A stretch of 64,000 bases of DNA, taken from positions 3,254-67,253 of the forward strand of contig JBMFNP010000003.1 of assembly GCA_049970095.1 (NCBI GenBank). The letters run 5' to 3'. Below the pieces are notes generated by a model. That model made no database searches, had not been told where the DNA came from, and saw only the letters and a list, made by a program, of their open reading frames with translations. Origin of the DNA: Thermoplasmata archaeon (GTDB lineage: Archaea > Thermoplasmatota > Thermoplasmata > Lutacidiplasmatales > SKW197). The position numbers and the translations under genes are program-made. Below are positions 30,926 through 33,900 of this stretch, piece after piece (within the stretch, counting starts at the first letter, position 1; each line of letters begins with the position of its first letter).

Positions 30926-33900
30926 TTGGTGATCTCTTTGGCACTGAAGAAGATACAGATAATAGGACTTGTGCTTGGAATTATCCTACTTATAAGCGTG
31001 ATTGGTGTGCTGTTGCTGATGAGTACCCCAAAACCCCAGGAAAATAAACCTCCTGTAGCGAATTTCACAATGGACAAAACAAGTGCAAAAGTAAATGAGC
31101 CAGTAACCTTTACATCAACATCTTATGACCCTGATGGGAATGAAACAATTGTAAAGCATCTCTGGGAATTTGGAGACAATACGAACAAAACAGGGAACCT
31201 CAGAACAGTAACGCATTCGTATGGAGCACCTGGTGTCTATACTGTCAAACTTACAGTAGAGGATGAAAAGGGTGCACAGAATTCTATCACCAGAACACTC
31301 AGCATTACCGAAGAAATTTACGACGAATACCAGAATGTTACTGTAAATGAACTGCTTACAAATCCTCAAAATTACCTGGAGAAGAAGGTGAGATTGAATG
31401 GATGTATAGTGGCGGATATGGGGTATTACCCTGGAAACCTCACAAACAGCACCACTTTCTATGTAGTGGATGACGCAGGAATAAAAGGACTGAACATATA
31501 CACGCAGCCAAATGCGACAAGACCAGCCACAATAAATTACAATGAGAAACTTGTGATCAAAGGTACATTTACAACATACAAAGAAGCGTTTGAACTGAAA
31601 GTGAGCGCAGGCACACCTGATTCCGTAGAATCTTTAGGCACATATGGAAAAAATTCGTATGAGAATTATACTGTTTCCTCACTTCTTGCAAATGCTGGGA
31701 ACGCAAACTACTCTTTTGTAAAGATAGATAATGCAGTTGTTGACTGGGTAAATAAATCCTACAAATATACCATCACAGATGTAGGTGGCGGTGCAAATAT
31801 AACCGTGTACTGTGAATTTGGTGCGAATGCTCCATATGTGTCATCTGGAGATAATATCTCGGTGCAGGGATGGTTCAAATATTACTCAAAGGAGGGTGTT
31901 TGGGAAATCACAGTAAGAAATGGAACGGAGGATAAAGTTGAACTTAAAGGTGTTGCTTACACTATGGTAACCGTAAATGAACTGCTTACAAATCCAGGCA
32001 GTTATCTGAACAAGAGTGTTGAGCTTACAGATGTAGTTTATGCGTACAGAGTGCACTGGAATGCAAGCAATTTAAGTGAGTATGCAAGTTTCTATGTAAT
32101 AGATAACGGAGGCACAAGGGGCTTGAATGTGTTTGCCACATCAAATGCCACAAGACCTGCAGTGGTTGCATACGGTGATTTACTGCACATAAAGGGTAAG
32201 TTTGAGATTTACAATAATGCATACGAAGTGTATGTTGGCAAATCCACAACACCAGATTTGATTGATAAGACAGGAAGCGGCGGCACAAACATCTATGCCA
32301 GTTATCCAGATATCAACACACTTCTGGGTAGTACCACAACCGCAAATAATTCCTTTGTTAAACTCAATAATCTGGTTGTAGATTATGTATATGCATCCTA
32401 TAAATTTACAGTTAGGGATAACAGCACATCCACAAATATCACAATATATGGAGAATATGGTGCAAACATACCAGCGGTGAGTGCAGGGCAGATAGTGAAT
32501 GTTTCTGGGTGGTTCACATGGTACACCAGCGGGGGTTACTGGGAGATTGTAATAAGGAATGCGAGCAGTGATATTGTTGAGGTTTCAGGGCAAAGCCAGC
32601 AATACATACCTGTAACCGTAAATGAACTGCTTACAAATCCAGGCAGTTATCTGAACAAGAGTGTTGAGCTTACAGATGTAGTTTATGCGTACAGAGTGCA
32701 CTGGAATGCAAGCAATTTAAGTGAGTATGCAAGTTTCTATGTAATAGATAACGGAGGCACAAGGGGCTTGAATGTGTTTGCCACATCAAATGCCACAAGA
32801 CCTGCAGTGGTTGCATACGGTGATTTACTGCACATAAAGGGTAAGTTTGAGATTTACAATAATGCATACGAAGTGTATGTTGGCAAATCCACAACACCAG
32901 ATTTGATTGATAAGACAGGAAGCGGTGGCACAAACATCTATGCCAGTTATCCAGATATCAACACACTTCTGGGTAGCACCACAACCGCAAATAATTCCTT
33001 TGTTAAACTCAATAATCTGGTTGTAGATTATGTATATGCATCCTATAAATTTACAGTTAGGGATAACAGCACATCCACAAATATCACAATATATGGAGAA
33101 TATGGTGCAAACATACCAGCGGTGAGTGCAGGGCAGATAGTGAATGTTTCTGGGTGGTTCACATGGTACACCAGCGGGGGTTACTGGGAGATTGTAATAA
33201 GGAATGCAAGCAGTGATGCGGTTGAAGTGAACACGCAGTCTCCATACACCCAGGTAACTGTAGCAACCCTTCTAGCAAATCCTTCCCAATACAATAATAC
33301 TGAGGTCTGCCTAAAAAATGTATATGTGGACTGGGCAAAAACTACATATAACTTTAATGTAAAGGATGCTCCCTCAGACACCTCCAACCTCACCATCTAT
33401 GTTTCAAAGAATGCTAAAGCACAGCCAATCTATACTGGCTATTATGTAGATATTTACGGAGAATTTACATGGTACACCAGTGGAGGTTACTGGGAGATTT
33501 ACATAAGAAATTACACTGATGATAAGGTGATTGCAATATACAATTATCAAAGGATTACAGTTTCGGAACTTCTTGCAAATTCTTCAACATATCTTGGAAA
33601 GAATGTTTCTATTGATTACGCAATCATTACAAATATTACATATAATTACTACCTTTTCAGGGTGAAGGACAACTCAACTACCCAGGAATTAACAATATAT
33701 GTAAACAAAAATGCTACCTCCCCTTCAGCGCTCTCTGTTGGGCAGGCAGTGAAAGTAAGTGGCGTCTTTAAATTGTACAACACCACATACGAAATCCAGA
33801 TCAGGAATTATTCCACCGATGCGGTAGCTCTGCTTTCTGCAAATACTGGACTGGATAACTCTCATGCGAACACGGGAGGCATAGGATGGAAGGAAAACAG

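Follow-up and report, generated by a model that had tools for sequence, protein, structure and literature searches.

In one gene of an uncultured Thermoplasmata archaeon, two consecutive 645-nt units have almost the same DNA sequence. A reading of the sequence alone had attributed this likeness to a very recent duplication. We asked whether the pair is indeed young, or whether an older pair has been kept alike, using the 64-kb (64,000-nucleotide) stretch of DNA that carries the gene, referred to as the window, and related sequences. Every sequence compared is a metagenome assembly.

A near-identical repeat in a predicted surface-protein gene

The repeat lies within a single long ORF on the + strand, which is organised as follows (positions in the window).

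30926..33946, + strand: gene for the predicted PKD and OB-fold array surface protein; 1006-aa ORF counted from the first TTG
30938, + strand: TTG start assigned by NCBI to the identical protein P0119 (1002 aa)
30926..31036, + strand: N-terminal hydrophobic segment, residues 1-37; predicted signal sequence or membrane anchor (Kyte-Doolittle scan)
31043..31306, + strand: PKD domain, residues 40-127 (Pfam PKD_4, E = 1.1e-18)
31337..31966, + strand: M1, an older, diverged double-OB module of 210 aa, from sequence comparison with the units
31967..32572, + strand: body of unit 1, homogenised tract
32573..32611, + strand: inter-unit linker Li (IVEVSGQSQQYIP), unhomogenised; orthologous to the inter-unit linker of L007 (SVEVYGQSQNYTA)
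32612..33217, + strand: body of unit 2, homogenised tract
33218..33253, + strand: terminal linker Lt (AVEVNTQSPYTQ), orthologous in three lineages (72-78% nt identity)
33254..33835, + strand: two more single OB-fold modules, B4 (33254-33553) and B5 (33554 to about 33835)
33836..33946, + strand: C-terminal tail with the last residues ...IVRIARDL, kept in orthologues

An ungapped comparison at offset 645 aligns 31967-32562 with 32612-33207 with 2 mismatches in 596 nt (99.66% identity), and megablast extends the match to 31967-32572 versus 32612-33217, with 3 mismatches in 606 nt (99.5%). All three differences are synonymous (32281, GGC/GGT; 32332, AGT/AGC; and 32563, the last of which is also present in L003, another assembly of the same species). 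The offset equals 3 x 215, both copies are in frame within the ORF, and the 199-codon bodies of the two units encode the same protein. These comparisons confirm the near-identical in-frame pair described in the sequence-only reading, and a match of 606 nt at 99.5% cannot be due to chance. M1 is 54.9-55.4% identical to the units at the nucleotide level and 45.7% at the amino acid level, in line with the 35-50% previously given for the older module. Within B4, a 48-nt patch (33464-33511) has 85% identity to the 3' end of the units.

The pair is the sole long near-identical repeat that megablast finds across the window. With no further copy in the window, a mobile element and a repeat family scattered through it were both rejected, and coding on the opposite strand was rejected because the minus strand has no ORF of at least 100 aa across 31967-33256. 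Tandem Repeats Finder (TRF) reported no repeat in 28000-38000; the longest period it considers is 500, so its silence on a period of 645 is no evidence against the repeat.

Since the encoded protein has an N-terminal hydrophobic segment and a PKD domain, and its 1006-aa ORF includes 41 N-X-S/T sequons, it is predicted to be a surface glycoprotein, probably membrane-anchored and N-glycosylated. The earlier description of a 215-aa module in a glycosylation-rich surface-protein gene agrees with these predicted features.

Fold of the repeat unit

The AlphaFold2 model of a single unit (pLDDT 91.4, pTM 0.88) consists of two five-stranded barrels, and on this model we are confident in assigning each unit as a pair of OB folds. 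The best Foldseek matches in the PDB are tandem-OB proteins, namely HIN-200, Teb1 AB and the single-stranded DNA-binding protein (SSB) of Thermus/Deinococcus (E = 1.6e-6 to 1e-4). Pfam matches to OB families comprise tRNA_anti-codon and CcmE; the value for PF01336 (1.1e-13) is a whole-protein score summed over weak stretches, none of which passes individually. Like the unit, HIN-200, Teb1 AB and the SSBs place two consecutive OB barrels in about 200 aa. The likeness is one of fold and domain count, with TM-scores of only 0.27-0.35 and 9-15% identity. In contrast to these nucleic-acid binders, the archaeal units have a predicted extracellular location and many glycosylation sequons.

Related sequences

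A search with the full-length protein retrieved three close relatives; the 215-aa unit alone retrieved none, which we attribute to a word-index limit. The metagenome-contig scan yielded L006 and L005, the latter being the contig also designated L001. The genome-contig scan yielded only a match of 23 residues, in a Wallbacteria MAG (L004), which was dismissed as spurious. The species of the window is represented by three assemblies, which are the window itself (protein P0119), L003 and L009; 20 of 8097 nt distinguish the window from L003. Several contigs are interrupted in the repeat: that of L009 stops 128 nt into unit 2, that of L002 has its first base within a unit, and that of L008 contains a gap of 99 N.

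Units are alike within genomes and diverged between lineages

Units of one genome are 95.4-96.6% identical in nucleotide sequence over their whole length and about 99.5% identical in their bodies. Between lineages, orthologous units share 69-74% of their nucleotides, and orthologues of M1 share 63.5%. The same contrast is seen at synonymous and nonsynonymous sites (pS and pN, Nei-Gojobori): pS between the units of one genome is 0.022 in the window, 0.015 in L003 and 0.023 in L001, whereas orthologous units of different lineages have a saturated pS of 0.72-0.82 and a pN of 0.11-0.15.

These values bear on the idea that selection for the same protein in both positions keeps the units identical. 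The unit bodies of the window do encode identical protein, as that idea would have it, but they differ at only 3 of about 135 synonymous sites, while such sites are saturated between orthologues. Selection at the protein level cannot explain identity of this kind, and we regard it as an extremely improbable cause.

The near-identical tract varies in extent between lineages: its start lies near unit nt 1 in the window and near nt 31 in L001. In L007, units 1 and 2 have 43 differences, the first at nt 3 and most of them in the first half of the unit. At two positions where the window and L003 differ (32118/32763, R/K, and 32380/33025, synonymous), each assembly has its own allele in both units, a pattern that an assembler could mimic by merging paralogous SNPs. 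The unit-1 variants of the window at 32281 and 32332 occur in neither of the other assemblies of the species.

The units belong to a small protein family in which the internal repeats of the other members are mostly 24-66% identical at the amino acid level (ungapped offset scan). Exceptions are one member whose repeats reach 76% and P0129, whose repeats reach 91-94%. As few members of the family are homogenised, homogenisation is not a property of the fold.

Linkers and the age of the pair

The proposal that one 645-nt unit of the window genome underwent a de novo, in-frame tandem duplication very recently draws on the high identity of the copies (99.5-99.7%) relative to the older module (55% nt). 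The linkers argue against it. The identical tract of 606 nt is shorter than the period of 645 nt. The linkers that follow the two units (39 nt and 36 nt) are only about 54% identical to each other, and Li is only 51-54% identical to the linkers that flank the pair in its own gene, so that a fresh junction is not seen. Moreover, the same unit-Li-unit junction is present in all three assemblies of the species, and the same two-unit layout, with an orthologous terminal linker (...QSPYTQ), recurs in lineages that are 26-31% diverged at the nucleotide level. Such a recent event is therefore very unlikely, and this part of the sequence-only reading does not hold. Because diverged lineages share both the unit pair and the terminal linker, the duplication appears to be old and the homogenisation recent.

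Alternatively, the module might have been duplicated recently and independently in each of the three lineages, which would give near-identical units in each with no old pair homogenised. Blocks of unit plus linker do duplicate as a whole in L007, where units 1 and 2 are followed by identical inter-unit linkers and unit 3 by one of 97% identity. However, three events with the same boundaries would be required, and in every lineage the inter-unit and terminal linkers of the gene are strongly dissimilar, with 16-20 differences over their 36-39 nt. The window Li also resembles the L007 inter-unit linker (64% nt, 9/13 aa) more than it resembles any linker of its own gene, and shares with it the same extra residue, a common length and the motif GQSQxY. 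The inter-unit linker of L001 is 51-61% identical to all other linkers and hence ambiguous. We consider independent duplications very unlikely. Judged from these sequences, the duplication would predate the split of the lineages; the linker argument comprises 12-13 codons and is ambiguous for L001.

The locus is thus likely an old, variable-number array of 215-aa double-OB modules, the units of which evolve in concert, homogenised by recurrent homologous recombination.

Unit number and the reliability of the assemblies

Assembled relatives carry 1, 2 or 4 units. The clearest difference is between L006 and L001, which are 99.94-99.985% identical over 13.5 kb: L006 lacks exactly one 642-nt unit of L001, leaving one unit instead of two and an intact ORF of 788 aa. 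L007, from a sister lineage, has four units on a 93-kb contig, L002 has a different mosaic of unit variants, and no difference in unit number is seen among the three assemblies of the window's species. The suggestion that the repeat would permit variation in module number is borne out at the level of assembled sequence, and the unit number may differ biologically as well.

A collapsed or expanded assembly repeat had been put forward as the alternative, and in its strongest form it holds that the genome has a single unit, the second being a misassembly or a chimera of strain variants. Related MAG contigs often end or carry N gaps in the repeat, and the near-identical contig L006 has a single unit, both of which would fit. 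Nevertheless, the junction of unit end, Li and unit start is unique sequence that could not come from a single-unit genome. It is present in the window/P0119, L003 and L009, as well as in orthologues from other samples, and the ORF is intact in every version. A unique junction in three assemblies of the species means that at least two units exist, which makes a single-unit genome highly improbable. The alternative retains its force for the exact number of units and for the percent identity. Assemblers based on de Bruijn graphs can merge SNPs that distinguish paralogues and can take a repeat loop the wrong number of times, and the 99.5% identity, the same-allele pattern and the counts of 1, 2 and 4 could all partly be assembly products. 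Since short-read MAG assemblies are broken or distorted at this locus, the gene lengths and repeat identities that they give there should not be accepted at face value.

A model for homogenisation and length change

We hypothesize that the old array is kept homogeneous by recombination between its units, which would maintain near-identical DNA. This recombination may take the form of gene conversion, of unequal exchange between copies of the chromosome, or of a combination of the two; conversion and repeated rounds of unequal exchange would look alike in these data. The machinery is presumably RadA-dependent. Recombination would halt at the diverged linkers, which would thereby stay position-specific, and this would account for a tract shorter than the period. 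Misaligned recombination may add or remove whole 645-nt units in frame and so change the length of the predicted extracellular OB array.

Tandem repeats that evolve in concert, through gene conversion or unequal crossing-over, have rDNA as their classic case. As in such repeats, the paralogous units described here are closer to each other within a genome than orthologues are between genomes, also at synonymous sites; the ends of the array are not homogenised, and its number changes by whole units. In contrast to the classic cases, only two to four long (645-nt) coding units are involved, inside one archaeal gene.

Comparison with length-variable surface proteins

Bacteria are known to achieve rapid length variation of surface proteins through coding repeats that are nearly identical. 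Periscope Proteins, a bacterial surface class that includes SasG/Aap, Rib/alpha C, Sgo_0707, Esp and CdrA, are monomeric single-chain proteins whose arrays are anisotropic, rod-like stalks projecting a functional domain, and the stalks are built from Ig-like folds, beta-grasp folds or three-helix bundles (PMC8201768, PMC9704523). For the M protein of group A streptococci, size variation through recombination between intragenic repeats is cited in PMC9704523 (ref. 12).

The archaeal protein resembles Periscope Proteins in several respects. It has a tandem array of individually folding domains encoded by repeats of high DNA identity, with a surface location that is predicted here; the repeat number may differ between close strains, as judged here from metagenome assemblies; and the proposed mechanism is homologous recombination between repeats. 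It differs in that the repeat unit is an OB-fold pair, the array has only 1-4 units, and the anchor appears to be N-terminal, so that the membrane-distal end would be the C-terminus. The host is an archaeon, as indicated by the source name of the closest proteins (Thermoplasmata archaeon) and by the type of gene neighbourhood, and archaea are not mentioned in PMC8201768 or PMC9704523. Since the class is described as bacterial, we term the protein Periscope-like and do not assign it to the class.

Tentatively, and with rather less confidence than we have in the homogenised array itself, we speculate that the protein may be an archaeal counterpart of Periscope Proteins, a glycoprotein OB array that expands and contracts by recombination in natural Thermoplasmata populations. 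If so, the length of the OB-fold stalk, and perhaps its ligand valency, may vary from cell to cell or from strain to strain. Both the OB-fold domain type and archaea are absent from the published Periscope class, and finding this signature in OB-fold repeats of an uncultured archaeon would carry the principle over to a further fold and a further domain of life. The rate of intragenic recombination in Thermoplasmata could also be followed with the locus as a natural marker. It opens no long-standing question and would hold little surprise for a specialist.

Neighbouring genes

Downstream of the array gene lie three further genes.

33886..34722, + strand: 278-aa protein combining an N-terminal zinc ribbon with a single TM helix and OB folds; conserved neighbour
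34719..35750, + strand: 343-aa TM-anchored OB-fold protein; conserved neighbour (ORF from the first GTG begins at 34674)
35747..37081, + strand: TctA-family polytopic membrane protein (Pfam TctA, E = 7.1e-38)

The last 61 nt of the surface-protein gene also form the start of the gene that follows. Together, the array protein, the two membrane-anchored OB-fold proteins and the TctA-like membrane protein form a conserved four-gene cluster, and the TctA-family neighbour is kept in L001, L002, L003, L007 and L008. The wider gene neighbourhood is of archaeal type (DUF835).

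The repeat and its gene

The repeat lies in a gene for a predicted surface protein, the first gene of a four-gene cluster that is kept in all relatives, with the partner genes at window 33886-37081.

Genes of the cluster
30926-33946, plus strand: surface-protein ORF, the single long ORF there, 1006 aa counted from the first TTG
Gene 2: 278-aa protein with zinc ribbon, TM helix and OB folds
Gene 3: 343-aa TM-anchored, OB-fold protein
Gene 4: TctA-family membrane protein

The database protein P0119 is identical to the window protein, with its NCBI start at TTG 30938 (1002 aa). Conservation of the cluster suggests a membrane complex of OB-fold ectodomains. 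In all lineages the last 55-61 nt of the surface-protein gene also belong to the start of the next gene (window 33886-33946; relative loci L001 8276-8330 and L007 10233-10293). The overlapped segment encodes a conserved C-terminal tail (...IVRIARDL, ...IVPVARDL, ...IVRSARDL), and more distant relatives end in ...AEDMLVH or similar.

The domain order is anchor, PKD, M1, unit 1, unit 2, B4, B5 and a short tail ending IVRIARDL, M1 being an older, diverged copy of the repeated module and B4 and B5 single OB-fold modules. Residues 1-37 form a hydrophobic stretch behind a KK motif; Pfam places a PKD domain at residues 40-127 (E = 1.1e-18), and OB-fold models are represented by summed weak Pfam matches (tRNA_anti-codon 1.1e-13, CcmE, tRNA_anti_2). 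T, V, N, Y and S are abundant in the protein, which has 41 N-X-S/T sequons. One unit was modelled with AlphaFold2 from a nine-sequence alignment of modules (pLDDT 91.4, pTM 0.88), giving a confident model of two beta-barrels with short helices ahead of each. The top Foldseek matches in the PDB are tandem-OB proteins (HIN-200 domains, Teb1 AB, Thermus/Deinococcus SSB; E = 1.6e-6 to 1e-4), at TM-scores of only ~0.3 and 9-15% identity. From these matches we take the unit to be a pair of OB folds, nothing more specific.

In an ungapped comparison at an offset of 645 nt, 31967-32562 and 32612-33207 (596 nt) differ by two mismatches, 32281 and 32332, both synonymous at third-codon positions. With a third synonymous difference at 32563, the match extends to 32572/33217 (606 nt, 99.5%), beyond which the copies diverge sharply in the linkers (32573-32611 versus 33218-33253). 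The period of 645 is a multiple of three, and both unit bodies, the tracts without linkers, encode identical protein. M1 (31337-31966) shares 55% nt and 46% aa identity with the units. No further long near-identical repeat was found within the 64-kb window; TRF did not report this one, because its longest period is 500. On these grounds the sequence-only reading described the repeat accurately, as a near-identical in-frame pair beside much more diverged copies.

A 48-nt patch in B4 (33464-33511, encoding FTWYTSGGYWEI) matches the 3' end of the units at 85% identity, the rest of B4 being far more diverged. The patch may have been left by an older exchange, or the motif may be under strong constraint.

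Age of the pair

Relatives were gathered by full-length protein search, cluster look-ups and contig retrieval.

Relative loci by lineage
Window's species: L003 (GCA_049699375.1), 20 differences in 8097 nt
Window's species: L009 (GCA_049971275.1), 3 differences in 4802 nt
Second lineage: L001 (JGI Ga0207433), protein 71% identical
Second lineage: L006 (JGI Ga0078972), near-identical to L001
Third lineage: L002, L007 and L008 (NCBI MAGs), partial protein P0003 (L002) 76% identical

The gene architecture is the same in every lineage, and the units are alike within a lineage but not across lineages. Within one genome, whole units with linkers are 95.4-96.6% identical; between lineages, units share 69-74% nt identity and M1 orthologues 63.5%. 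By Nei-Gojobori counting over the 199-codon unit bodies, pS between the units of one genome is 0.022 (window), 0.015 (L003) and 0.023 (L001), and orthologous units of different lineages have a pS of 0.72-0.82 (saturated) and a pN of 0.11-0.15. Synonymous sites are thus in step within genomes and randomised between lineages, which rules out protein-level selection as the cause of unit identity and points to repeated homogenisation or to a fresh duplication in each lineage.

A fresh tandem duplication would be identical over at least one full period, with a junction that copies the flanking sequence. We find the opposite pattern. Identity covers 606 nt, less than the 645-nt period, and the inter-unit linker Li of the window (IVEVSGQSQQYIP) shares only 51-54% nt identity with the linkers flanking the pair. 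This Li is closer to that of L007 (SVEVYGQSQNYTA; 64% nt, 9/13 residues, same extra residue) than to anything in its own gene. The terminal linker Lt, which follows the last unit, is orthologous across lineages (AVEVNTQSPYTQ, AVEAYTQSPYTQ, SVEVGSQSPYTQ; 72-78% nt between lineages). Because the window and L007 linkers match best and Lt is orthologous, the common ancestor of these two lineages already had at least two units; the argument covers these lineages, the short linker of L001 being uninformative on the age of the pair.

Our verdict from these comparisons is that the near-identity probably reflects ongoing homogenisation of an old pair. The sequence-only reading had proposed a very recent duplication, against which stand the tract shorter than the period, an Li that is not a copy of its flanks, and linkers shared across lineages. 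This is concerted evolution as textbooks describe it. On its left, the homogenised tract begins at about nt 1 in the window and at about nt 31 in L001, and unit 1 of L007 shows 43 differences from units 2-4, from nt 3 on and mostly in the first half of the unit. Such lineage-specific edges would be expected from separate recombination events with different end points.

Proposed mechanism and strain-level traces

The evidence best supports homologous recombination between the near-identical tracts of 606 nt. Gene conversion (non-reciprocal exchange) would keep the unit bodies identical, and misaligned exchange between chromosome copies, or intramolecular deletion, would add or remove units in frame, in steps of 645 nt. 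Exchange would halt at the diverged linkers, which would so remain position-specific. We infer both the enzymes involved and the balance between conversion and unequal exchange. The array of OB folds outside the cell would then probably be adjustable in length; the locus could gain in significance from read-level proof that this length varies within a natural archaeal population.

Two of the 20 differences between the window and L003 form homologous pairs, 32118/32763 (Arg/Lys) and 32380/33025 (synonymous), at which both units of a strain carry that strain's allele. From the 0.25% background, we roughly estimate the chance of two such pairs at ~1e-6. The window's unit-1 differences at 32281 and 32332 are absent from both L003 and L009, and L003 has one of its own at unit nt 51. 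These observations are consistent with units still identical in the strains' recent ancestor, later private mutations, and at least one inter-unit exchange since the strain split. A serious caveat is that, if these are short-read de Bruijn graph assemblies, merged paralogous SNP bubbles could place the same allele in both units.

Unit number and assembly reliability

The assemblies contain 1, 2 and 4 units. L006 and L001 are 99.94-99.985% identical over 13.5 kb; the alignment falls into two blocks, shifted by exactly 642 nt against each other and overlapping in one unit, which makes L006 a single-unit locus. Its unit joins the left end of unit 1 to unit 2's terminal linker, and the 788-aa ORF is intact. 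Because Li is absent from it, the one-unit form is a deletion or assembly collapse of a multi-unit gene, not the ancestral state. L007, on a 93-kb contig, encodes a complete 1430-aa protein with four units (645, 645, 645, 642 nt); units 2 and 3 differ at 12 sites, and units 3 and 4 at 2 sites in the body. The Li copies behind units 1 and 2 are the same sequence and the one behind unit 3 matches them at 97%, so whole unit-plus-linker blocks have been duplicated there. The penultimate unit of L002 combines unit-2-type SNPs with a unit-3-type linker, a different mosaic.

The array breaks assemblies. L009 ends (at window 32739) 128 nt into unit 2, an exact stop that suggests k-mer-limited short-read assembly; L002 begins inside a unit, L008 has a 99-N gap (5178-5276) inside the array, and five further MAG proteins are truncated in it. 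Public MAGs do not give reliable gene lengths at this locus. That the window's species has at least two units can be taken as safe: three assemblies contain the unit-Li-unit junction, and this sequence is unique. For the existence of two units, this rules out the assembly artefact that had been raised as an alternative, which keeps its force for the exact unit number and the exact percent identity. The proposed variation in module number holds in that the repeat is a substrate for it and the relatives' assemblies differ, but the one-unit variant and the upper bound, as figures from metagenome assemblies, are not safe.

Relation to known repeat proteins

Of the classes described so far, the bacterial Periscope proteins come closest. 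They are single-chain proteins of the cell surface whose tandem domain repeats are highly identical and vary in number between close strains, with homologous recombination as the proposed cause (PMC8201768, PMC9704523). Like theirs, the repeats of the window protein are highly identical and each is a folding domain, but here surface location is predicted and strain-level number variation is seen in metagenome assemblies only. The host is an archaeon, whereas archaea are without mention in PMC8201768 or PMC9704523; the closest proteins carry the source name 'Thermoplasmata archaeon'. Unlike the Ig-like, beta-grasp and three-helix repeats of Periscope proteins, the repeat is an OB pair, and units number only 1-4.

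The family is small: the unit profile hits only 105 of 1.84 billion cluster representatives at E <= 1e-3, and 16 of these at <= 1e-30. Internal repeats of other members are mostly 24-66% identical, with one at 76% and P0129 at 91-94%, so homogenisation is special to few members. P0129 (1673 aa), a distant member with PKD and an OB array, has single-OB repeats of 91-94% protein identity at offsets of 109, 114 and 226 aa; within the family, OB arrays may have become homogenised on more than one occasion. Some distant relatives have a Lamin Tail Domain at the C-terminus. In extracellular nucleases such a domain occurs together with OB folds, a lead only.

Other loci in the window

Four adjacent genes at 25074-30267 (minus strand) form a ubiquitin-type set.

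Ubiquitin-type gene set
29065-30267, minus strand: zinc ribbons, DUF835 and a weak C-terminal YukD/ubiquitin-like match
28519-29061, minus strand: E2 (UQ_con, E = 1.9e-13)
25908-28553, minus strand: JAB/MPN protease (E = 3.9e-14)
25074-25907, minus strand: E1 (ThiF, E = 1.7e-52; E1 part of PADLOC 'E1-E2' models, 9e-16)

The first protein ends ...PDPEGGIREGE, GG plus a 5-residue tail. The order Ubl-E2-JAB-E1 is one that we take to recall bacterial Bil-type and Caldiarchaeum-type operons. L009 also has the stretch of the set that it covers (JAB, E2 and the DUF835 protein). After its protease domain, the JAB protein has ~700 Glu/Lys-rich residues, probably coiled-coil, which cause the extreme skew of this region (GC skew -0.38, AT skew -0.40); PADLOC gave only weak LmuB/JetC-like (SMC-type coiled-coil) matches to it.

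A 1622-aa protein (17533-22401, plus strand), with an N-terminal Kelch beta-propeller, many Ig-like/fn3 domains and a C-terminal TM helix with basic tail, is predicted to be another large surface protein. At 56220-60231 (plus strand), a region of strong positive GC/AT skew (0.39/0.40), a Metallophos (Mre11-like) gene is followed by one for an 820-aa SMC/Rad50/SbcC-type ATPase.
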